A program made the translations under genes and the position numbers. Shown piece by piece: positions 5,001-50,252 of a DNA stretch of 64,000 bases; the stretch's first letter is position 1; each line of letters starts with the position of its first letter. The DNA is taken from the NCBI GenBank assembly GCA_964016885.1, contig OZ024743.1, forward strand, positions 199,082,001-199,146,000, read 5' to 3'. The stretch is from Eledone cirrhosa. Lineage: Eukaryota. The notes under the pieces were generated by a model, which was not told the DNA's origin, made no database searches, and saw nothing but the letters and a program-made list of their open reading frames with translations.

Positions 5001-5170
5001 AAGGGGCTTCCTCAATGCATACAGTATAATTCATATTTGTGTATTTGTAAATCACCACTAGTGTTCTCAGACTGTGTTTTAATTTGTTTTAGAATATTAT
5101 AGATTATCAAAGCACCGGGCGTGTTTATAATTTTAAAATATGAGATTCCCAAATATAGACTATAACTGTA

Positions 5171-6187
5171 ATAATTATTTCTACTTTTGGCAAAAGGCCA
5201 GCAATTACCCCAGTGTATTACTGGTACTTTATTTTATCGACGCCATAAGGATGAAAGGCAAAGTTAACCTCGGCGGGATTTGAACTCAGACCGTAAAGGG
5301 CCGTAACTCTATGCTGCAAAGCATAGTATCCGATCCTCTACCAATACAGCCAATCCACCACTATGTAATAATTGTTTCTACTTTTGGCACAAGGCCAGCA
5401 ATTATCACAGTGCATAACTGGTACTTTATTTTATCGACCAAGTAAGGATGAAAGGCAAAGTTAACCTCGGCGGGATTTGAACTCAGATCATAAATGGCTG
5501 TAACTTTATGCTGCAAAGCATGGCGTCCGACCCTCTACCGATACTGCCAATTCACCTAATAATTGTTTCTACTTTTGGCACAAGGCCAGAAATTACCCAG
5601 TGCATAACTGGTACTTTATTTTATCGACCCCGTAAGGATGAAAGGCAAAGTTAACCTCGACGAGATTTGAACTCAGACCATAAAGGGACGTAACTCTTTG
5701 CTGCAAAGCATGGCGTCCAACCCTCTACCGATACTACCAATCCACCGCCCTAATAATGGTTTCTTATATAGGCACAAGGCCAGTAATTTGGGGGGAGGGG
5801 AAAATCGATTAAATCGACCCCAGTGCGTGACTGGTACTTTATTTTATCGACCCCATAAGGATGAAAGGCAAAGTTAACCTCGGCGGGATTTGAGCTCAGA
5901 TCATAGAGCCGTAACTCTATGCTGCAAAGCATGGCGTCCGACCCTCTACCGATACTGCCAATCCACCACCCTAATAATAACAGCTGAACAGTATAGATAA
6001 TTGTTTCTACTTTAGGCACAAGGCCAGAAAATACCCAGTGCATTACTGGTACTTTATTTTATCGACCCCCGTAAGGATGAAAGGCAAAGTTAACCTCGGC
6101 GGGATTTGAACTCAGATCGTAAAGGGACGTAATTATGCTGGAAAGCATGGCGTCTGACCCTCTACCGATACTGCCAATCCACCACCC
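5171..6187 (-). mobile_element. Five head-to-tail copies of a tRNA-derived Nin-domain-type SINE
   Basis: Units of ~190-220 bp start near 5171, 5368, 5558, 5751 and 5997. The minus strand has box A (TGGCAGTATCGG), box B (GAGTTCAAATCCC), core GCCTTTCATCCTTACGGGGTCGATAAAATAAAGTACC and an (ATT)n-like tail. Confidence 0.85.
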
Positions 6188-18787: not shown

Positions 18788-20068
18788 TGGATTGGCAGAG
18801 TTGGTAGAGTGTCGAACAATATGCTTTATGGTATAGGATTACGCACCTTTATGATCGGAGTTAAAATCCTGCCAAGATTAGCTTTACCTTTCATCCATAC
18901 AGGGTCAATAAATAAAGTACCAGTAACACACTGGGGTCGTTTTAATCAACTTCCTCCTCCTGCCAAATTGCTGGCTTTGTGCCTATGTCAGAAATCATTA
19001 TTAATATGATTGGCAGTAACAGTAGAGTGTCGGACACCATGCTTCATGGCATAGGTTTACGCCCCGTTATGATCTGAGTTCAAACCCCACTGAGTTTAGC
19101 GTTGCCTTTCATTCTTACAAAGTCAATAAAATAAAGTACCAGTAACAAACTGGAATTTATTTAATTGACTTTCCCTTCCTCCAAAATTGCTGGCCTTGTG
19201 CCTAAAGTAGAAACAATTATTATTATGGATTGGCAGTTACACCCCTTTACATTCTGAGATCAAATCCCGCCTAAGGTACCTTACGATATCAATAAAATAA
19301 GGTGCCTTACTGGTACCTTATTACTGGGTTCAATTTAATTGACTTTCCTTTCCCATAAAATTGATGGCCTTATGCCCAAATAAGAAACCATTATTATTAT
19401 TTTGCTTTTATCATCTCTAGTTGTTAGTGCCATGTCAAAAGGCATCTAGTCCCCTCTAAAATGGTTGGTGTTAAGAGAGTCCTCTACCTGTCGAAACTAT
19501 GCTACAACTGGAACTTATTTAAGTAGGCTGTGGACTTGGACCTGTCTAGGAGGCAGTTTCAGAAAAATAGGCATCAAATGATGATGGAGATAGTGATGAG
19601 GAGGAGCATTAGTGTGGGAAAGTAGCAGAATTGTAAGAGCATTGATGAAAGTACTTTACTTTGTCTTTTTTGGCTCTTTACATTCTGAGTTTAGACTCTG
19701 AGGACCTCTGCTGGGGTCCGCTTTCCATTTCATCAGTCCATGGTCAATAATATAGAGTATCAGTCAACAACTGGGACAACAACATTCCCCTTCCCCTAAA
19801 ATTGCTGGCTTTGAACCAAAATTAGAAATCATTATTATTGTTGTTGAGATTATAATTGTTATTATTTCCCATTATTATCATCATATCAAGGTGGTGGATT
19901 GGCAGTATCGGTAGAGGGTCGAACGCCATGCTTTGACGCAAAGAGTTATGGCCCTTTCCATTCTCAGTTCAAATCCCTGCCTTTCATCCTTACGGGGTCG
20001 ATAAAATAAAGTACCAGTAATACACTGAGTAATTGGTGGCCTTGTGCCAAAAGTAGAAACAATTATTA
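18788..20068 (+). mobile_element. Cluster of about five further Nin-domain-type SINE copies of varying age
   Basis: Heads near 18788, 19008, 19228, 19615 and 19890, each followed by core and ...GCTGGCCTTGTGCC..AAGTAGAAAC-like tail. Confidence 0.7.
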
Positions 20069-26199: not shown

Positions 26200-29100
26200 C
26201 GTGTGAAGTATGCATGCAAATTTACAGTAGGTTTGAACAAAATGTATCTTAGTTGATAGTCCAGTATTCTATCCCATTTAATGTTACTGCTTCTACAATC
26301 TATATGCAGATAATTTACCTCAGATCTCTCTGGATTATAACATTTCATATAATAACATTGGAATTTCATTTTAGAAATTTAAACTGAGAGTTCAAGCTCA
26401 TCCAAAGTACTAGAATCATTATCATTTAGTGTCTATTTTCTCTACCAACAAATGTTGGATGGGTCAACATAGACTGAGTCAGTGCTCATGCAAAGCTACT
26501 GACCTCTTAGATGGTCCAGAGGCCTGCATTTCACTGCTTATACAAAGCTTCTGATCTCTTAGATGGGCCAGGCGCCTGCATTTCACTTATCAAAGTATAA
26601 GAATATTTATATAAATAAATATATACTGATATAAAAATTGATATAGAAAGATGATGGAAGAATACATAGAACAGAATATAGTATAAGGAAATGAAGATAC
26701 AAAAGATGAAATTAATTGTCTGGAAATACGACTACACTAAGAAACTATATGAAACTTTTTTCATGGCTCCTATATACTTGACATTGGAATTGTCAGTAAG
26801 TATGTAATAATTTATTTGGTGCTATTGATTTTATGAAAAATCACACTTCAACTGTTGATTATGCTGATTAATGACTCATGAATAACACAAATATAATTAC
26901 AATGATAAAATACATTGATAAATATGTGACAATTCTTTTGATAAAATCTGTTGATAGATAAATCTATTGATAAATAATTCGAAGCAGTTTATGTATTTGC
27001 TGGCTATCATAAAAAATTACTGGCTGCTATAATATTTTCATGCTACCATAGACATATCAATTTTAGATAAAACAAAGCCACTGAGATGACTAATGTTAGC
27101 TTGAAACTGTTATTAGCTTATCTTCTAGAAATATTAGTAATAACTACATAATTGACTAAATAATAATGATTTCAACTTAAGGAATAGCAGAAATAATGCC
27201 CTCTGTCAACATTTCTTGTATAAAGTTTATACTTTTTTTTTGTTTTGCTTTTTATATTCTTATTTGTTTGGTGTATCAGAAAATTGGTGATAGTTTATAA
27301 TTTGTTCCGACCAATGATAAAGATTTATGGCTGGGATTGTAATAACTACCTACCTGAAAGAGAATTGAGTTTAAATATCTGGAATAATGCCACTTCTTAC
27401 AATTATGTTTCATAAATAATAAGAATTTTAACCTCCTTTGTTTGTTGGAATCAGGAAAATAGAATCAGAGAGTGGAAACTTCTCTCAAAAATCGAAGTAG
27501 TTTTGTTTTTGTTTTCAATCTGAATCACATGTAGACAATAATATCTTAGAGCCAAGAATAATGAGGTCAATTTTTTTTGTGATGGGTAGGGCTGATTCAA
27601 TTTGTTCTAGTAAAACTGATTTTATTGGCCTTGGAAAATGGTGGTGAAGACAAGAATGATTCATATGGAATTTAAACTCATAAGTAAGATGAAAATAAAA
27701 AACTACGTAGCATTTTTAGTGCCTTTCATACAGAAAGAGCATTGTTTTCTTTTATCCCATGGTGAGATTATTTTAAATTTGAAATGTTTAATAAATTCAA
27801 TCAACCCATTATATTACCGGTAACTACTTTTATTTGACTCTAGAGAGATAATTCCCAAACACAATTCAAAGTATATTTGATGTGTTTGGGCTGTCTGAAT
27901 ATAGTTTAGGATAAGTAAGCAGCAACTAAAAGATTTGCTGTTAGGAAAGGTATCTCGCTCTAAAACATTGCCTTAAAAAATCCCGTCCAACCCATGCCCA
28001 CATCGAAAAGTCAATGTAAAATAACGATGATGATTATAATTATGATGATGACAACGATGATGATGTTATTCTCTACTGGTCATTTCTACAATATCCTTGA
28101 GAAGTAACAAGTGCTCCACCAGCTTCAATGACGAGTGGTTTACTTGTTTGATCAATGGAACAGCCTACTAATTAAATTCATGTAAATGTAGCTGAGTATT
28201 CCATAGATATATACCATTTATGTAATTTACAGAGATTCAGAGCAACATATTCTATGTCAAGGTTGACCATTTGAATTACTGAATTACAGGTGCAGTCCAT
28301 TCAATGGGCTTCCATATATTCTAAATCTACCTAATTTCCTTCACAGTTGTTGGCTTCAACCAACGTTATGGTAAAAGACCCTTGCCTAAGATGCCACACA
28401 TTGAGATGAGACCTAGAACTTTAGTATAAGGCAAAACACTCAGGCACCCAGTCACACTCTTTCTATCTTATGTATCCTTATTTCATAATTAATAAGGAAT
28501 TTATATTGAGATGTAGCATAGAGATGCTGACTTAAAAGTATGATGATGATGATGATGATGATACAATAATGATGATGATGATGATAGTGTTGGTGATGAT
28601 AATGATGATACAATTATGATGATGGTGATGATAATGATGGCAATGCTGATGATGATAGTGATGATGATGATGATGATAATGATGATGACGAAAATGATGA
28701 TGATGATACAATAATAATGATGATAATAATGATGATAATGATGATACAATGATGATGATAGTGATGATGATGATGATGATGGTGATAATGATTTTATTGA
28801 AGGCATTGTTTCTATATCCTGAGTTCAAATCAGGCGAAAGTTGATTTCACATTTTAAGCAACTGAGGCTTGATAAAATATGTGCCAGGTATGTCTTTGCT
28901 CAGGATGAATTAGGTACATCATCTTAACATTAAATGTTTGACATTGTGCCAATGAAAGAAATCAATGCTAGGAAAATGACATTGCCAATTGATTTATATA
29001 TATTAATAAATAAATATAGACATGGTTATGTAGTGAAGAAATTCATTTTGCAGCCATGTCATTTTGGGATTGATCTCATTGGACAAATGTCTTTCATTAT

Positions 29101-29291
29101 AAGCCTTGGGTTGACCAATAACTTGTAACTGAAATTTGTGTTGGGAGATGAAAGTGATGGGATATAACCAGTTAATAAGGTCTAGGATACACCGGTATAA
29201 TGAAATTATAGAAGGTAAAATCAACCCTAACAACATTTGTACTGAGGTATGTAATTATTTTACATCCACTTCTCCATGATGCCATATATAT

Positions 29292-29358
<67 letters not shown>

Positions 29359-30189
29359 TGTTTAATATAGAAATGGCTTCTACAGGATTAGAACTGTTTC
29401 ATTCAACGGAAATCACCTGGAAAGCTTTCCTGATGATTTTTTCCAATGAAATAGTTATAGTCCATTGTTAGCTTGGTTTCTAAAACTGGTTGATCTTCTT
29501 AAAGCCAACCACTTTACAAAGTGTACTGGGTGCATTTTATCATAGCATTAACACTACCGCTTTCTAGAGAGTACTGGATGCATTTTACTGAGGCACCACA
29601 ACTATCACTTTATATGTATATATACATATATGCTAGCATGGAAAATGGATGCTAAACGGTGATGACGATGAAATATATATACATAGATATATAGGAAAAG
29701 AGTCATATATATATATATACCATGTAGGTGTCACAAATCGTGTGTCACAACAAAATGTATCCAGCACACACTGTAAATGTGGTTGGTATTAGGAAGGGCA
29801 TCCAGACATAGAAAACCAGCCCCAAAGCACCAAGCACTCACTGTCTAAGTGGTTGGTGATAGGAAGGGCATCCAGCCATAGAAAACCAGTCAGAAACTCT
29901 CCTATATGAGTGAGACATGGTCATCTGACCCAATTTGCCTCTAATTGGGACAAACCCATCTAGCCTATGCCAGCCTCGAAGATAGACGTTAATCGACAAT
30001 GATGATGATGATATATATATATATATATTGTTACAAAATGTACTGGGTGCATTTTATCATGGCACAAACATTACCTCTTTTCAGAATGCATTGAATGTAT
30101 TTTATTTCGGCACCACAACTACGACTTTATATATATATATATATAAATGTGTGTGGGTGTATATATTTATATATATATATATATACATA

Positions 30190-30802
30190 TCATCATCATC
30201 ATCATCATCATCATCATTGTTTAACGTCCATCTTCCACACTAGCATGGGTTTGGACAGGAATTTTCCCACTTGAAGCAAGATTGGTTGTCTTGCTCGTAT
30301 AGGACTGTCTGGCGGGTTTTCTATGGCTGGATGCCCTTCCTAACACCAACCACGTTTACAGTGTGGACTGGGAGGTTTTTACCGTGTTACCTACGCGGCC
30401 ACATTACGGCGTGGACTGTGTATTTTTTGTCGTGACACCGACACGATCTCATTTGTTTAGGACTGGATGTTGTGGTACCAACATAACTTTACATCAAAAG
30501 TGTATTTTGGTAAGAGGTGCCAACTGACTGTAGGTTTCGCTTTGCACTTAGGTAATTACAGCATAGAGCCAAAGATCTCGGTCCAGTGACATTGTCTTGG
30601 AGAGGTGTAAGTGTGTGAGGTCGGAATTTATCAAGTCGTCCCAGGTTTTTCTGGGTCTGCCTACTCCATGACTACCGTCTATTTTGATCGTCCTGCACTT
30701 TTTTATACAGCTGTCGTCTTTCCCGCGAATCACGTGATCATACCAACGTAGTCTTCTCTCGAGTAACCAGCATCTGATGCCTCTTATACCTAATTTCTCA
30801 CT

Positions 30803-30803
<1 letters not shown>
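30190..30803 (-). mobile_element. 5'-truncated copy of the long RTE family
   Basis: ORF EKLGIRGIRCWLLERRLRWYDHVIRGKDDSCIKKCRTIKIDGSHGVGRPRKTWDD is nearly identical to the end of 48944-49768; includes 3' UTR and (GAT)n tail. Confidence 0.9.
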
Positions 30804-30876
<73 letters not shown>

Positions 30877-31186
30877 GAATAGAATGAAACGAAATTTAAT
30901 TTCTCACTCTTAGTACGGCACTTACTTAAATGTAAGTATGTATGTATGTATACGTACATACATATATGTATACAGACGTACAGTAGTATGTATATATATA
31001 CATACATGCACACATATATATATATGCACGTATCGGTTGAGTGAGAAATGAAATTTCGTTTCATTCTATTCCATTTATCGTTTTCTGTGCGTCCGACCAA
31101 CTGAACTCACTCGATATCCAAATTAGGCTGCTCAGCCGTTAATATGCAAAAGGAAAGTATATAATTTCAGACGTTCAACCATCTGG

Positions 31187-31246
31187 CAGGAAGGTATACG
31201 ATGCTGACGATAGGTTAATAAGCTTGAAACTAGTACATCATTCCTG
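31187..31246 (+). ncRNA. Type I hammerhead ribozyme, array copy 1
   Basis: CAGGAA-ggtata-CGATG CTGACGA taggttaataagctt GAAAC ta GTA^CATCA TTCCTG; predicted cut after 31235. Confidence 0.75.
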
Positions 31247-31635
31247 TGTCAGTGTTGAACAAAAAGGTGACGTGGTTGCCTAAACACTGTACGGCGTAAT
31301 TCGGGCTGTTTGTTTGTTTACAAACAAACAAACCGAGCATTATAATAAATGTTCGGTAAACCGATACGTGCATATATATATGTGTGTGCATGTAGGTATA
31401 TATATATACATACTACTGTACGTCTGTATACATATATGTATGTACGTATAGATACATACATACTTACATTTAAGTAAGTGCCGTATAAGAGTGAGAAATG
31501 AAATTTCGTTTCATTCTATTCCATTTATCGTTTTCAGTCCGACCGACTGAACTCACTCGATATGCAAATTAGGCTGCTCAGCCGTTAATATGCACAAGGA
31601 AAGTATATAATTTCAGACGTTCAACCATCTGTCAA

Positions 31636-31690
31636 GGAAGGTATACGATGCTGACGATAGCTAATAAGCTTTAAACTAGTACATCGATCC
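31636..31690 (+). ncRNA. Hammerhead copy 2, core mutated (GAAA>TAAA), probably inactive
   Basis: CTGACGA at 31651, but TAAAC at 31672 removes the catalytic G12. Confidence 0.65.
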
Positions 31691-32062
31691 TGTGTTAGTG
31701 TTGAACAAAAAGGTGACGTGGTTGCCTAATCACTGCACGGCCTAATTCGGGCTCTTTGTTTGTTTACAAACAAACAAACCGAGCATTATAATAAATGTTC
31801 GGTAAACCGATACGTGCATATATATATGTGTGCATGTATGTCTATATATACATACTACTGTACGTCTGTATACATACATACATACTTACATTTAAGTAAG
31901 TGCCGTACTAAGAGTGAGAAATGAAATTTCGTTTCATTCTATTCCATTTATCGTTTTCGGTGCGCCCGGCCGACTGAACTCATTCGATATGCAAATTAGG
32001 CTGCTCAGCTGTTAATTTTCACAAGGAAAGTATATACTTTCAGACGTTCAACCATCTGGCAA

Positions 32063-32117
32063 GGAAGGTATACGATGCTGACGATAGCTAATAAGCTTGA
32101 AACTAGTACATCGTTCC
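32063..32117 (+). ncRNA. Type I hammerhead ribozyme, array copy 3 (intact)
   Basis: GGAA-ggtata-CGATG CTGACGA t AGCT aata AGCT t GAAAC ta GTA^CATCG TTCC; predicted cut after 32108. Confidence 0.85.
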
Positions 32118-32489
32118 TGTGTCAGTGTTGAACAAAAAGGTGACGTGGTTGCCTAATCACTGCACGGCCTAATTCGGGCTCTTTGTTTGTTTAGAAACAA
32201 ACAAACCGAGCATTATAATAAATGTTCGGTAAACCGATACGTGCATATATATATGTGTGCATGTATGTCTATATATACATACTACTGTACGTCTGTATAC
32301 ATACATACATACTTACATTTAAGTAAGTGCCGTACTAAGAGTGAGAAATGAAATTTCGTTTCATTCTATTCCATTTATCGTTTTCGGTGCGCCCGGGCGA
32401 CTGAACTCACTCTGTATGCAAATTAGGCTGCTCAGCCGTTAATATGCACAAGGAAAGTATATACTTTCAGACGTTCAACCATCTGGCAA

Positions 32490-32544
32490 GGAAGGTATAC
32501 GATGCTGACGATAGCTAATAAGCTTGAAACTAGTACATCGTTCC
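32490..32544 (+). ncRNA. Type I hammerhead ribozyme, array copy 4 (intact)
   Basis: Identical motif to copy 3; predicted cut after 32535. Confidence 0.85.
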
Positions 32545-32918
32545 TGTGTCAGTGTTGAACAAAAAGGTGACGTGGTTGCTTAAACACTGTACGGCGTAAT
32601 TCGGGCTGTTTGTTTGTTTACAAACAAACAAACCGAGCATTATAATAAATGTTCGGTAAACCGATACGTGCATATATATATATGTGTGCATGTATGTCTA
32701 TATATACATACTACTGTACGTCTGTATACATACATACATACTTACATTTAAGTAAGTGCCGTACTAAGAGTGAGAAATGAAATTTCGTTTCATTCTATTC
32801 CATTTATCGTTTTCGGTGCGCCCGGCCGACTGAACTCATTCGATATGCAAATTAGGCTGCTCAGCCGTTAATTTGCACAAGGAAAGTATATACTTTCAGA
32901 CGTTCAACCATCTGGCAA

Positions 32919-32973
32919 GGAAGCTATACGATGCTGACGATAGCTAATAAGCTTGAAACTAGTACATCGTTCC
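32919..32973 (+). ncRNA. Type I hammerhead ribozyme, array copy 5 (intact core)
   Basis: Same motif with bulge GCTATA; predicted cut after 32964. Confidence 0.85.
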
Positions 32974-33365
32974 TGTGTCAGTGTTGAACAAAAAGGTGAC
33001 GTGGTTGCTTAAACACTGTACGGCGTAATTCGGGCTGTTTGTTTGTTTACAAACAAACAAACCGAGCATTATAATAAATGTTCGGTAAACCGATACGTGC
33101 ATATATATATGTGTGCATGTATGTATATATATACATACTACTGTACGTCTGTATACATATATGTATGTACGTATAGATACATACATACTTACATTTAAGT
33201 AAGTGCCGTACTAAGAGTGAGAAATGAAATTTCGTTTCATTCTATTCCATTTATCGTTTTCGGTGCACCCGGGCGACTGAACTCACTCTATATGCAAATT
33301 AGGCTGCTCAGCCGTTAATATGCACAAGGAAAGTATATACTTTCAGACGTTCAATCATCTGGCAA

Positions 33366-33419
33366 GGAAGGTATACGATGCTGACGATAGCTAATAAGCT
33401 TGAAACTAGTATATGTTCC
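33366..33419 (+). ncRNA. Hammerhead copy 6, stem I weakened
   Basis: Core intact, but the 3' strand of stem I reads TATG instead of CATCG. Confidence 0.65.
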
Positions 33420-33637
33420 CGTGTCAGTGTTGAACAAAAAGGTGACGTGGTTGCCTAAACACTGTACGGCGTAATTCGGGCTGTTTGTTTGTTTACAAAC
33501 AAACAAACGGAGCATTATAATAAATGTTCGGTAAACCGATACGTGCATATATATGTGTGCATCTATATATATACATACTACTGTACGTCTGTATACATAT
33601 ATGTATGTACGTATACATACATATATATATATATATT

Positions 33638-33712
<75 letters not shown>

Positions 33713-34378
33713 ACATCATCCTTTTGTTGCTACACTTCAAATGTAATATAAATTGAAGACAGTAAGTGCTGACACTGCATATAAACTTATAAAAATGTCT
33801 ATAATTTTCAGTGAAATTATAGCTTCAAATCAATAGTATGAGCTATTCACCAAAATATAAATGAAGCCACACATTTCTAGCTATAGTTGTTATTGTGGAT
33901 ATGGTTATTGTTGTAGCTATTGTTATATATCTTTTAGACGTGTTTATTATATGCAGGCTTACCTAAGTATAACATATTGCACCAACATTTTATTCTCAGA
34001 AAAAATAAATATACCTAAAGGCATAAAGAATAAAATGTTTTCTTTCTCTATTCATTTTATTTAATATAGTTCATTCTGGTTTCAAAAAATTTCTTTATTT
34101 ATTATTCTTTATTAGTTTTCTAATTTGTTTTGCTTTAAATATTATCATTGTTATTGCAGACTTTCTAATTTACTTACTTTTAAATGATTTCAAAAGAATT
34201 AACGTGACAAAATAGCTTTTTCTTCATGCCAATAGAAAAAATGAAAAATAAAAAAGAATACAGTAAATATATTTTTTTAAATTTGAAACAGCGATACGCA
34301 TACATATGTATGTGTTTGTTTGTGTGAGTGTGTCGGTGTGTTTCAAATGCTTTAAAATATATATTTAGCATATTCTTT

Positions 34379-34444
<66 letters not shown>

Positions 34445-34531
34445 TATATATATATATATATATATAAATATACATATACATATATATATATATAAATATA
34501 CATATACATATATGTTTATATATAAATATAC

Positions 34532-34581
<50 letters not shown>

Positions 34582-34675
34582 GTATGTATACATTTATACA
34601 TGTGTATATAAATATATATACATATATCTTTCTTATATTTATAGATAGATACATATATATACATGTATATATATT

Positions 34676-34741
<66 letters not shown>

Positions 34742-36260
34742 TATATATGTGTGTGTGTAATGGTAAGAAGGAGTTGGAGGAGTAAACTAAGTTTGGCAGA
34801 TCTGTTGTTTGCACTTGTATTAAAGTGAAGTCAAGTACAATATCTTGTAAAACTAGATTTTAACAAGGAACAGAATATGTTTTGTATTGTATTATTTATT
34901 TATTTTACAAATCTGAAAACCTTTGTTTGAAAATTGCAATGTACGATTTCAGGTTTGTAACTGTAGGCTTTCATATTTTCTTTGTTCTCTTTCTAATTCT
35001 CTTTCTGTATCTCCTCCATATAGAGTAATACATATGTATATTATCATTATCATCATCATCATCATTATCCATCTATTTCCCTTGTTATACAAGGTCGGAC
35101 AGGTAATCACAGGCTAAATTAGTACTTAATTAGTGCCAATATAGGTATGCATGTTTTTATCATTAGCATCGATATTATATTGAATTAAAATCCTCTGAGA
35201 TACGTTGGATGTTCGCCTGTCCCTTATATGTCCCATTTATGGCACCATTTCAATAGCTGGATACCCTTCCTAACACCAACCACTTTACTTTAGTGCATTT
35301 CATAATGACCTCAGGACTAGGATGCTGCTCTGTCCTTGATAGACCCAAACAGATGTCTTCGGTTGCATCATATTTTTGTTACAGCCCACATATTTATGTC
35401 AAGTTTAACTTGCCTCCAGTTCTATCATGAAAAGCTTCCCACCTGGACTAAATGCCAGTCCATTACAGAAGCCTTCAACTGCTTGATGGTACTCATTACA
35501 TTTTTCAGTGATGTAGACTGGGGCAACATGAAATGAGACATCTTACTCAAGGACACAACATGCTACTTGGTCCAGAAATCAAACCCATAATTTTATGATC
35601 ATGTGACCAACATGCTAACCACTAATTTTTTTTTCCAGCTGCCTTCCTTTTATGTTTAATGTAAATGATAATTATTCTTATATGTTTTTTTTTCATCAAA
35701 CATTTTTTAAACAAATAATTTCCCAGACATATAATAAGTTGACCACACTTTAATTGATATCTACCTACTAAGTACTTGGTACAACACTATGGATTATGCT
35801 GGTTGTATGATAATCTGTATTCAAGTATAAACTGGAACAAAAATTTAGTCATCAAACATAGCATGTTTTCAGTTGGTGTCATTCAAGCTGTTTTCCCATT
35901 ATTTTTTTAGATTTTAAACAGACATAGAAGTTTTATATAGTAATTACCTGGATAATCTCAGTTGAACAATGATTGTCAACTTAACACTTTCATTGTCATA
36001 TTTCTAATAAGTTACACTCTATTTGAATTAAGTGATGCAAAATTAGAATTTCATTATTAAGATGGATTTGAAATATAACAAAATATTCTTATATAAAATG
36101 ATATCATTTAACTAGAAACCTTTTTATGAGTGATTTTGTTCCATTCACCCCAAGGCAATTTTTTGTGGGTTGGCATTAAAAGGATTAATCTAGACTCTTC
36201 CTTATTTGTGGTATGTGAATTTTCAAGTTTATTCATTGGGTAGGATACAGAATCTAGTTA

Positions 36261-36476
36261 TTAACCCTTTAGCATTTACATTACTCTATATTTACTATTG
36301 TATTTTCATGGTAAAGTTTTTATCTCACATAATATCGAATCTATAAGATTTTTGTGTTATATATTTTGAGAAAAATACCTTAATATAGGTATGAGCAGCC
36401 AGTTACAACCAGTTTGAACAGAAAGAGGTGCGAGAGTTTTGGCCAGATACATCCGGTTTAAATGCTAAAGGATTAA
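36261..36476. mobile_element. TTAA-flanked piggyBac-type MITE
   Basis: TTAA-CCCTTTAGCATTTA ... TAAATGCTAAAGGA-TTAA terminal inverted repeats. Confidence 0.8.
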
Positions 36477-37158
36477 TATGCAGCATAATGTGCAGTCAAT
36501 GCCCACTATTAACATCTCTATCTCTAGATGTTAATTTGAACTAAAAACATTGTTTGATGAAAACCAAGCAATATTTCAGTTCACTGAAAGTGAGACATAA
36601 TAACTTGAAATGGAAGCCAAGTCCTAATCAACATTTTATCTAGTTGAAGTAGGACTTAATGCTATGTTGTAACTCCAAATAGAATAACAGACTTTGAGCG
36701 AATTTGAGTAAAATTCAATAATGTTTGAAAGCTAATATGAATTAGTTTGATTTTTCCATTTGTCTAACAAATTTGAAACTGTTTAGATTTTGTAGTAATT
36801 GAGTGAGACCCTATTGAGACTAAACATAAACATCTGTGACTTTCAGAACAGATCAGATTTCGTATCAGAGTCGCGAGATATTAACACTCTGTTTTAGTTC
36901 CTTCTCCATCTAAGAGGTAAATTTCAATTAACTAATATTTTTTAATAACTACCTGATATCCTACAATCAAAGCATTGCTCAAAATTATTATCACTAAAAC
37001 TATTGGGCTCTTTTCAGACCCCTAATGAACAATAGCTTTCCATTTTTTGTATACCTAGGACTACACTATTCAATGTGTCATTCTTTTTTTATAAATTTAG
37101 TATGGTCTTTAAGGGAGATTTGGATGATATGATTAGCAGATAAAATATCAACATAGAA

Positions 37159-45781: not shown

Positions 45782-45811
45782 AGATCAAAGGATGATTAAA
45801 AGAGTTCCATG

Positions 45812-45882
45812 TATTTTATTATGCGCATTTCAAAAACAAATATCATCATGGAATGATATCTGCGTTCTCATCAGATAAAATA
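45812..45882 (-). ncRNA. Type I hammerhead ribozyme with palindromic stem III
   Basis: Minus strand: TATTTTAT CTGATGA gaacgcagatatcattccatgatgatatttgttttt GAAA tgcgca TA^ATAAAATA. Perfect 8-bp stem I, long stem II, stem III ATGCGCAT. Confidence 0.8.
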
Positions 45883-46201
45883 GGGAGACATGATATGAAG
45901 CTTAAAAAACACTTGTGAGCAGTGAAGTTTTAAATCAACATATGAAAAATAAATTAAGATGGATGTATGAGATTGGGAAAAGGTGAGGGGGGGTAGGTAA
46001 GGAAGAGGAAGAAATAAGAGTAAAGGATGGTGGGGAGGAGTATAAGAAGGAAGGATGAGAGAGGAGGAGAGATGGGTGATAGAGAGAGAGAGATAGCCTT
46101 TACAACTGGGAGAAAATATTGTCTCACAGAGAGAAATTAAAAAGCCGCCAATATTTGTATTGCTTTATTGTGCTACAATAAAACTCACCTCCTACATATA
46201 T

Positions 46202-46594: not shown

Positions 46595-49500
46595 CAAAAT
46601 ACGGGGATCTTATTTAAAACTTACATTCTCGCTAACTACCCAATATCCATCCGACCCGCCCAGATGCACCACCCGCCCCACGCACCACCATTATTACGTG
46701 GACCAATCATAAGTCAGAGGCCTATACTATCACTTACCTGGTTGCCTTTCGATATGATGGATGGACTACGGAATCCTGGAGAGTTGAAAAGAAAAATCTG
46801 GAGGCTCAGTGACATTGCCAAAGATAAAGACAAATTCACCTCGTGGACGAGAATGCAAGCACTCCTCCTCTTTGTTTCGGCCGCGGATGGCTAACATAAC
46901 CATATAGCCCCCCCCCCGCGCCCCACCGCTCCCACCATCCAAACTCAATCCAAAACTTCAGAGTTGGTACCATGAATGTAGGTACCTTAAAGGGTCGCTC
47001 TAACGAGGTTGTAGAAATGCTTGAACGTAAGGAGGTCGATGTTTGTTGTATTCAAGAGACCAGGTGGAGGGGTGGGTCTGCTAGATTCATCGTGAGTAAA
47101 GAACGATGCTATAAGCTTTTCTGGGTGGGAAATGACAATGGGCTGGGTGGAGTAGGAATCATGGTAGAAGAAAAGTGGGCAGATAAGATAATAGACGTAA
47201 ATAGAGTGAACGATAGAATAATTAAAATAAGACTTGTCCTCAATAGAACTACGGTGACAGTAATATCTGCGTACGCACCCCAATCCGGACTGCCCAGCAC
47301 TATAAAAGACAGATTCTATGAGACACTGATGCTTACTACCTCCCAAATAACCAACACTGACTATATAATTATTGCAGGCGACCTAAATGGTCACGTTGGA
47401 CAACATTGTGACGGCTATGACGGAATCCATGGAGGCTATGGGTTTGGTATTAGAAATGAGGAAGGCTCCAGAATCCTGGAATTCTGTGACGCAAATAACC
47501 TAACTATCTGTAACACTAACTTCAAAAAACGAGACAATCACCTGATCACCTATAGATCGGGGGAACACACAAGCCAGGTAGATTATATCCTTACCAGGAG
47601 ACGTGACAGAGTGTCTGTTGTAAACACTAAATCCCTTCCCCATGAAGAATGCACGTCTCAACATAGACTCATAATCAGCGACCTCATAGTCAGGACGAGA
47701 CGTATTCGACAACAGAAGAGGACTATCCTCAGGAGAAAAATATGGAAATTAAAGGACCCCACAACCAGTCATAGATTTAAAAGCATATTACTTGATGCTT
47801 TTGATAGTAAGGAAGAGCAATTAGAGTCGTACAATATAGAGGAACAGTGGGAATTCCTGAAAGATAACCTGCTGAAGACGACAGATGAAACCTGTGGCTG
47901 GAGCAGGCCTATAGGCAGGAGGAGAGTAACTTGGTGGTGGAACAGTAAGGTGGAGAGGTCAATCAAGGCCAAAAAGCAGGCTTGGAAAGCATGGCGGGAT
48001 GGGGGAAGTAGAGAAGTCTATCAAGTGGCCAGGAGGGAAGCTAGGAGACAATAGCAGAGGAAAGAAAGTTCAAGCATGTTCTACAACGCGAGGACCAAAA
48101 ACGTGAGGTGTTCAGGATTGCTAGGCAATGTGTCAAGGAAAACAGTGATATTGTCGGGGAGAAGTGTGTCCTAAATGATGATGGTGTACTTGCCATCACT
48201 GACGCTGATAAGAAGGTAGCTTGGAAGTGTCACTACGAAAGGCTACTAAATGAGGAGAATAATTGGGAGAAAGACAGTCTCCCCCGCATCGACCCAATAG
48301 AGGGACCAGCAGTGTAAGTTGAAGGTAGTATAATAAGTAAGGCGATCAAAGACATGAAGACGGGCAAGGCGGCCGGGCCTTCGGAAATAGTTGCCGAAAT
48401 ACTGAAAGCATCTGGAACGGTCGGACACACTATGGTCACCCGGATAGTAAACCAAGTCATACAGAATGGGGTCGTTCCGAAGGACTGGCGCAGCAGCATC
48501 ATCATTAACTGCTACAAGGGTAAAGGTGATGCCCTAGATAGGGAAAACTATAGAGGCATTAAATTAATTGACCAGATCATGAAGGTCACAGAAAAAGCAA
48601 TAGCGCAACTAATCAGAGAGCGAATTGATCTAGACGAAATGCAGTTCGAGTTTGTGTCAGGTAAAAGTACAACAGACGCTCTTTTCATTGTACGACAACT
48701 ACAGGAGAAGTACCTAGCTAAAAGTAAACCCCTATACTTAGCTTTTGTTGACTTGGAGAAAGCCTTTGACAGAGTACCCCATTCGATTATCTGGTGGGCC
48801 CTTAGAAAACTAGGTGTTGATGAATGGCTTGTGAGAGCTATACAAGCCATGTATAAAGAAACAGCCAGCAAGGTTAGAATTAACAACGAATATAGTGAAG
48901 AGTTTAGCGTAAAAGTTGGTGTTTTACGCTAATAGCTGAATCAATGGCTGAACTAGAGAACACATTCCAAACATGGAAGCATGGCCTAGAATCAAAAGGC
49001 CTTAAAGTTAACTTGTCTAAGACTAAAGTTCTAGTTTGTAGGAAGGAAAATAGGGCACCGGTCCCATCTGGGAAATGGCCATGCTCAGTGTGTAAGAAAG
49101 GAGTAGGTATAAACTCCATTTTATGTCCCAAATGCAAAGTATGGGTACATAAAAGATGTAGTGGGATCACAGGTAAACTATCTAAGAATATAGATTTTCT
49201 ATGTGACCGGTGCTCTGGTGCAATAAGTAGCAGCAAGTGCCCACAGAATACTAACTCATTCCATTGCACAGATGGTTCTATAGAAATAGTGGACAGCTTC
49301 CGTTACCTGGGTGATAAAATCAGCAGTGAGGGAGGGTGCTCTGAAAGTACAGTAGCTAGGGTCAGAACGGGATGGAAAAAGTTCAGAGAGCTTATACCAC
49401 TATTGGCCGCTAAAGGGTTCTCTCTAAAAATGAAAGGCAGGCTGTATGATGCCTGCATACGAACAGCAATGTTACATGGCAGTGAGACCTGGGCATTGTG

Positions 49501-50252
49501 TGCAGAGGATATACGCAGACTGGAGAGGAACGAAGCTTGCATGCTTCGCTGGATGTGTAATAGTAACATACGTGAACGGCAAAGCATAAACGTACTAAGG
49601 GAGAAATTAGAAATAAGAGGGATCAGAGGTTGTTTACTCGAGAGAAGACTACGTTGGTATGGTCACGTGATGCGCATGAAAGACGACAGCTGCATAAAAA
49701 AGTGCAGGGCAATAAAAATAGACGGTAGCCACGGAGTAGGCAGACCCAGAAAAATCTGGGATGATTGATAAATTCCGACCTCACACACTTACACCTCTCC
49801 AAGACAATGTCACTGGACCGAGAGCTTTGGCGCTACACAGTAATAGAGAAGACCCGCCTTACCTAAGTACAAAGTGAAACCTACTACAGTCAGTAGGCAC
49901 CTCTAACAAAATACACCCCGTCCCACTACCCCCACCCCATCCACACCACCCCTTCAATGTAAAGTTATGTTGGTGTCACAACATCCAGCCCGAAACAAAT
50001 GAGGTCATGTAGGCGTCACGACAAAAAAATACAGTCCACGCTGTAATGTGGCCGTGTAGGCAACACGGTAAAAACCTCCCAGCCCCTCACTGTAAATGTG
50101 GTTGGTGTTAGGAAGGGCATCCAGCCGTAGAAAACCCGCCAGACAATCCTATGCGAGCAAGACAACCACACTTGCCTCAAGTGGGAAAACCCCCGTCCAA
50201 ACCCATGCTAGCGTGGAATATGGACGTTAAACGATAATGATGATGATGATGA

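Follow-up and report, generated by a model that had tools for sequence, protein, structure and literature searches.

A dispersed non-coding retrozyme family with hammerhead ribozyme motifs and Penelope-type insertion ends in the genome of Eledone cirrhosa

A 64,000 nt stretch of the Eledone cirrhosa genome (GCA_964016885.1, contig OZ024743.1, forward strand positions 199,082,001 to 199,146,000; hereafter the window, in whose own coordinates positions are given) contains a tandem array of short units with hammerhead ribozyme motifs, and raises the question of what kind of element this is and by which machinery it came to be inserted there. A preliminary description, made from the sequence alone, had reported six copies of about 430–450 nt, and this is borne out: there are six monomers of 423–450 nt (the last about 410 nt), with pairwise identities of 93.0–98.4%, and TRF gives a period of 427 (score 3763). 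The predicted cut sites were recomputed and are spaced as given there, at intervals of 446/427/427/429/447 nt. The feature is, however, larger than described, as an inverted arm and flanking (TA)n tracts to either side had been overlooked (Table 1). The outer end of this arm is the longer of two kinds of 3' end seen in the family, here called the tail end. Length variants of the monomers reflect an indel of about 20 nt. The unit is non-coding (longest ATG ORF 43 aa on the plus strand and 75 aa on the minus strand), with a GC content of 38%; no ORF for a reverse transcriptase (RT) plus GIY-YIG protein occurs between the repeats of the array, and there is no LTR layout (PBS and PPT were not searched for separately).

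Table 1. Features of the retrozyme locus, in window coordinates.
Feature	Position	Strand	Remarks
(AC)n, then (TA)n microsatellite	30806..30876	.	left target flank
Inverted 5'-truncated arm	30877..31038	-	~127 nt of monomer end plus ~35-40 nt from the start of the following one; found by aligning natural monomers to the window with blastn
Monomer m1, 450 nt	31039..31488	+	stem II altered, stem I mismatch; predicted cut after 31235
Monomer m2, 423 nt	31489..31911	+	catalytic core broken, GAAA to TAAA; predicted cut site 31681
Monomer m3, 427 nt	31912..32338	+	
Intact type I hammerhead of m3	32073..32113	+	predicted cut after 32108; stem I continues past a 6-nt bulge (about 32046-32133)
Cut-to-cut unit, 427 nt	32109..32535	+	flanked by two intact hammerheads; predicted linear or circular RNA
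Monomer m4, 429 nt	32339..32767	+	hammerhead intact, 32500-32540; predicted cut after 32535
Monomer m5, 447 nt, long form	32768..33214	+	core 32929-32969 intact, bulge changed; predicted cut after 32964
Monomer m6, ~410 nt	33215..33623	+	terminates at the no-tail (shorter) 3' end; 3' strand of stem I broken; predicted cut site 33411
(TA)n microsatellite	33624..33708	.	right target flank

The hammerhead had been said to be carried in full by every monomer. This is true of the CUGANGA motif, which is present in all six, but the intact 41 nt hammerhead is matched only by m3, m4 and m5 (the last with a changed bulge). Helix II comprises four pairs and a U-U, and helix III is 2 bp with a 2 nt palindromic loop. 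By the definitions given in PMC4209133, the canonical metazoan type I form has a stem III of 1–2 bp with a palindromic loop, whereas the min-HHR has a long helix II, an extra base after position 9, a G10.1-C11.1 pair and no helix III; the window hammerhead is of the canonical form and not a min-HHR, so that of the label 'minimal type I' only the type stands. The same source expects the canonical form to act as a dimer, and reports poor cleavage by the hammerheads of Penelope-like elements (PLEs). The U-U had been entered as a caveat, and it need not be one: axolotl HHR_Amex2 has the same U-U and cleaves, better so as a dimer (PMC7229834), and a further 55,524 motifs of this layout with U-U were counted in the E. 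cirrhosa genome (control, 180). The position is read as the first pair of stem II because it is G-C in the related family C and C-G in one variant of family E. An Rfam search, which had been proposed as a check, returned no hammerhead over positions 28000–37000 at E <= 1, only low-complexity miRNA and snoRNA matches below the gathering score.

Support for the predicted fold comes from compensatory changes seen when related families of the same genome are compared. Such covariation had been named as something to look for among genomic copies, and is present in a gapless alignment of 14 recurring family-level variants, hand-picked from 48 distinct ones: 95.2% of cells are paired, both sides have changed in 8 of 12 pairs, and the score is 0.572, against 0.197 for shuffled alignments (0/500 reach it) and at most 0.114 for slid ones. 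The number of double-changed pairs was matched by 33/500 shuffles and the number of pair types by 438/500; as these are related sequences, the shuffle fractions are not probabilities, and the set was collected with a pattern that demanded the core. The loop AAYA and the stem I bulge GGUAWA are retained across families A, B and C, which is suggestive of a tertiary contact between loop 2 and the bulge. Folding of the cut-to-cut unit gave z = -5.67 (0/100 shuffles as good), and that of the 71 nt hammerhead alone z = -2.16 (3/200). When the unit was folded as a circle, 67% of bases were paired and stems I and II formed, with pair probabilities of 0.46–0.77 and 0.90–1.0, respectively, so the unit is predicted to be highly self-paired with the hammerhead stems left free to form. 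At minimum energy a single hammerhead folds with its core closed in a non-catalytic form, and the cofold of two has a strand-swapped minimum and is thus no probe of a double hammerhead; taken alone, the stem III duplex is -4.8 kcal/mol.

The locus represents a single insertion from a large, dispersed, non-coding family. In the 3.0 Gb genome the exact 41 nt ribozyme occurs 1,723 times (control, 0), a 31 nt core pattern has 24,670 exact matches (control, 0), and a disjoint pattern for sister families has 11,323 (control, 6); three disjoint patterns together mark about 91,000 hammerhead-core motifs genome-wide. Among fetched loci, subfamilies are about 80–87% like the window copy, with units of 420–540 nt, and family C (units of 466–470 nt) resembles it at about 69% over 119 nt. 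The median divergence of the 44 closest copies from the column majority is 1.0%, which indicates a young family, and the view of the preliminary description, that this is a young, PLE-associated family of non-LTR retrozyme type, agrees with this figure, with the number of exact 41-mers and with the PLE-type ends described below. Most loci hold one or two units, and arrays of 6–9 near-identical units also occur. Successive units abut directly, head to tail, and in family C such runs reach 31 units. One such family C array (G000:C1:5738326-5752444; L213, L241) consists of 31 units of about 466 nt plus one inverted unit, and some of its variants recur every few units in the manner of a higher-order repeat. 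Family D (L062:5800-7001; G000:C1:5388706-5392670) is a 310 nt retrozyme in two-armed arrays that has only the ribozyme layout and geometry in common with the window family, its palindromic stem III being different. A pattern for further families with the same loop matched 444 sequences, nearly all of them single mutants of the window family, and the seven odd ones that were fetched proved to be chance matches.

The ends of the insertions point to the machinery that made them. In a first sample of 105 scored insertions (two at locus edges were dropped, and one one-armed locus was counted twice), 56 consist of two arms joined at their 5' ends and 49 are one-armed. Ends were classed as tail (monomer position 20–45) or no-tail (395–437). 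The two-armed insertions comprised 42 with one end of each class, none with two tail ends, four with two no-tail ends and ten others; with a duplicated block removed, 41 of 55 are tail/no-tail. Independent choice of the two ends is rejected (chi-square p = 1.2e-8, on the 46 classed cases). A second sample of 14, from which six edge and two complex rows had been dropped, gave nine tail/no-tail, one tail/tail (L287), no no-tail/no-tail and four others. At the window locus the tail end is on the left and the no-tail end on the right. The two 3' ends lie about 55–65 nt apart (tail ~60 nt), and in PLE families of the same genome the corresponding distance, judged by eye, is about 60–68 nt. A tail end running into (TA)n is also found at 31951 in contigs of the public runs X2 and X3, which come from one sample and are of unknown kind. 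The fetched insertions, like the window locus, show a bias towards (TA)n flanks, an association to be read without a genome-wide background and in a genome where (TA)n is very common, and both insertion ends show TA microhomology with the target. Any target-site duplication (more than 4 bp in retrozymes, when present) is hidden in (TA)n at the window locus; in a copy that lies inside a PLE ORF (L061), about 9 bp are repeated on either side, as judged by eye. The Hydra-like sequence flanking this copy was considered as a co-insertion, and is in fact the ORF into which the copy inserted. Craig et al. (bioRxiv 10.1101/2021.04.23.441226, Fig. 2) present such a layout, with a tail usually at one end, as specific to PLEs, and Frangieh et al. 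(PMC11167929) traced the tail to two internal RT start sites. The insertions studied here bear this 'tail on one end' signature.

Taken together, we consider it probable that the locus is one insertion of a non-LTR retrozyme whose reverse transcription and insertion are likely the work of an autonomous PLE through its RT/GIY-YIG protein. Under this model, arrays would be transcribed, and two hammerheads would associate by way of the palindromic stem III to cleave the transcript into units of about 430 nt, which would then be ligated into circles. The PLE protein would nick both strands of a (TA)n site, and on each strand cDNA synthesis would start from a different internal position in the RNA, so that two arms result which face outward, only one of the ends bearing a tail. 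The RT would read through the ribozyme site, as expected of a circle or an uncleaved multimer, and the six copies of the window array likely arose in part by local unequal exchange or template switching and not in one clean pass around a circle.

Evidence on the template comes from sequences at the predicted cut. Among 15,100 post-cut 25-mers, 14,351 (95.0%) retain the six bases before the cut, and the missing share is about the loss expected from 1% divergence alone. Since copies run through the cut site, and arms copied from cleaved linear monomers would stop there, the template was likely a circle or an uncleaved multimer, two forms that these data do not distinguish; the cleaved linear monomer is ruled out as the usual template. 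Arm 5' ends fall near the cut in 2 of 161 cases (4 expected), a sample that is biased because most loci were picked for an intact ribozyme, and the read-through counts are preferred. In the window array, pairs of monomers (m1/m2, m2/m3, m3/m5, m4/m6, m4/m5) have variants in common at 11 columns; these variants occur in 0–1 of the 44 other copies, and there are 22 singletons besides. One pass around one circle would not give such shared variants, which suggests local unequal exchange or template switching. Near-uniform arrays exist elsewhere (L062, L068, L071 and L243, with 1.4–1.5 differences per 310 nt in L062 and L243), as would be expected from one template copied many times.

PLE-driven spread might also proceed without cutting or circles, the RT copying uncleaved multimeric transcripts of arrays while the hammerhead is slow, protein-dependent or otherwise employed. 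Read-through of the cut site fits this equally well, and the mosaic of units in the window array is what the transcript of a mixed source array would leave. In vitro, hammerhead mutants had no effect on insertion by the PLE PAc, for which cleavage is not required (PMC11167929), and only one of nine Xenopus retrozyme dimers cleaved, eight remaining uncleaved (Li, Clavereau and Pollet, bioRxiv 10.64898/2026.07.22.740005). Nevertheless, maintenance of the core and stems by compensatory changes across families only about 69% alike would need selection on the ribozyme, comparable repeats of coral, mussel and axolotl yield abundant circles (PMC7229834), and arrays of 6–9 near-identical units occur even though most loci hold one or two. 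Spread without cutting is, in our judgement, somewhat unlikely.

Candidate helpers are present in the genome. A search with PLE fragments found near retrozyme copies recovered PLE families with open ORFs of 775, 784 and 821 aa. The first two have weak matches to RVT_1 and GIY-YIG; the third has no Pfam match and carries the DKT and CxCx5C motifs, which mark the Hydra clade (bioRxiv 10.1101/2021.04.23.441226). Autonomous PLEs with open ORFs found in this genome resemble the retrozyme in having two kinds of end and in their use of (TA)n. Three Neptune-like families (775, 784 and a third of ~775 aa) and two Hydra-like families, a sample of the PLEs and not an enumeration, were compared with the monomer, and none has significant homology to it (best E values of 0.11–0.39, or matches to other retrozyme copies). 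The 775 aa family has the most similar ribozyme layout, with U-U and a 4 nt palindromic stem III, which makes it a lead, and only that, to the possible helper. A wider reading would be that a superfamily of at least 36,000 hammerhead copies, with no sequence-related autonomous parent, parasitises PLE proteins by RNA shape alone, and that its insertions record paired priming at two start sites on circular RNA. We think this unlikely as a whole and offer it tentatively; if true, it would amount to genomic proof that ribozyme-made circles serve as PLE templates.

Alternatively, the units could be the pseudo-LTRs (pLTRs) of 5'-truncated autonomous PLE copies bearing the same sequence. PLEs leave many truncated, pLTR-only copies with exactly such ends (Craig et al., bioRxiv 10.1101/2021.04.23.441226), known transposable elements, nearly all of them PLEs, are matched by 24 of 57 retrozyme families in Xenopus (bioRxiv 10.64898/2026.07.22.740005), and the PLE families considered here are a sample. 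An ORF-bearing version would, however, leave one-armed insertions that share a 5' flank with an independent locus, and by eye none do so (0/49 and 0/5), nor would pLTRs account for units joined head to tail with nothing between, up to the 31 of family C. The pLTR origin is accordingly improbable, and a retrozyme mobilised by the PLE machinery remains our reading. Least likely by far, and already largely refuted, is a plain satellite that expanded locally through unequal crossing-over, or an error of assembly, the hammerhead-like motif being due to chance: private variants common to monomer pairs do indicate some local exchange, Rfam gives no match and no contig examined from three public runs spans even one monomer, but against this stand the dispersed copies, which number tens of thousands and have fixed ends, the covariation, monomers 2–7% apart with private changes, and the same tail end in the X2 and X3 contigs of one sample.

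The family is a new addition to the non-LTR retrozymes already known, and its size and ribozyme type are ordinary. The monomer had been placed at or above the long end of reported sizes; it falls inside the ranges of 150–450 bp given for metazoan non-LTR retrozymes (Cervera and de la Pena 2020, PMC7229834), such as those of mussel (~350–390 bp), axolotl (Rtz_331 and Rtz_353) and coral (225/245 bp), and of 51–972 bp given for vertebrate ones. With these metazoan retrozymes the window family shares tandem non-coding units with type I hammerheads, a GC content below 50%, a strongly self-paired unit, indel length variants (as in coral), the U-U at the base of stem II (as in HHR_Amex2) and the presence of PLEs in the genome. 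It differs in sequence, in its unit length of 427–447 nt and in its insertion ends, which the parts of that paper available to us do not describe; the supplement to the same paper presents further invertebrate retrozymes and may bear on novelty. In the literature covered (subscription journals, Dfam and Repbase lay outside its scope), no report of cephalopod retrozymes or of retrozyme tail/inversion ends was found, and the PMC4209133 supplement, in all but one of its files, has no octopus, squid or cephalopod entry.

Li, Clavereau and Pollet describe vertebrate non-LTR retrozymes as PLE derivatives, and define retrozymes by a minimum of two successive units that have complete hammerheads; m3, m4 and m5 are consecutive units with the type I hammerhead, and the dispersed monomers, occasional multimers and unit size of the window family also agree with their account. 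Their case for PLEs comes from co-occurrence and homology, whereas that made here comes from the structure of insertion ends, and no pLTR homologue appears among the five PLE families compared. Like EN+ PLEs of the Neptune and Hydra clades (bioRxiv 10.1101/2021.04.23.441226; PMC11167929), the retrozyme forms partial tandems, has an inverted 5'-truncated arm and a one-ended tail, targets (TA)n and carries its hammerhead upstream of two internal 3' ends; it differs from them in having no RT/GIY-YIG ORF and in its tail length (~60 nt, against a published 30–40 bp). PAc primes without homology in vitro (PMC11167929), whereas both ends of the window family show TA microhomology. Non-autonomous PLEs are known in the Chlamys group, for example MRC1, where the 3' end resembles that of autonomous partners and most elements are without hammerheads (Craig et al.).

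The link between retrozymes and PLEs has thus been argued in print from co-occurrence and homology, and what is new here is the signature at the insertion ends and the read-through of the cut site, which together link the retrozyme mechanistically to the PLE machinery. As the genome also holds young, intact PLEs of two clades, the unit offers a small in vitro substrate for asking which PLE protein copies it, and whether a circle is preferred. For annotation, it matters that such repeats fill megabases of this genome while escaping detection by Rfam.

Several minor observations concern the PLEs themselves. The commonest motif of the layout counted 55,524 times sits just upstream of a Hydra-like ORF start (L189). 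At L073:1800-1990 (minus strand), a single case, a subfamily B arm directly abuts a 5'-truncated Hydra-like RT with no (TA)n in between, a join that may reflect either template switching or subsequent insertion. Two Neptune-like families (L152:2551-6212, minus strand; L168:4299-7948, plus strand), with tandem units of about 4.2 and 4.7 kb, have an upstream ORF of 476 and 455 aa, respectively, measured from stop to stop; it lies in a different frame from the RT and overlaps it, suggestive of a frameshift, and the 476 aa ORF has no Pfam match. Unlike the other sampled PLEs, the 784 aa Neptune-like family has no recognisable hammerhead core between its ORFs (L168:3200-4400). The window itself holds a Hydra-type PLE hammerhead with end sequence at 45790–45900 (minus strand).

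An octamer motif occurs in five of the six monomers (31562, 31989, 32416, 32845 and 33292), about 89 nt upstream of the ribozyme core; it is found in subfamilies A, B and C4 and is absent from the copies of F, E, C and D that were checked. Newt satellite 2 carries an snRNA-type promoter (PMC2220036), and a promoter of this kind was considered for the monomer but is not supported, the host U2 genes having no octamer within 320 nt and a proximal element that did not match family A. Tandem U2 snRNA genes with a period of about 2.2 kb lie at G000:C3:307349256-307453739.

Elsewhere in the window, the upstream flank of the array includes the 3' end of a LINE-like ORF (30400–30790, minus strand), unrelated to the array, which we take to be RTE-like; a LINE-like endonuclease/RT copy of the same kind lies in pieces at 46900–49768 (plus strand). 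Tandem repeats of about 200–218 nt at 5166–6187 and 18804–19241 apparently represent one SINE-like family in both orientations.
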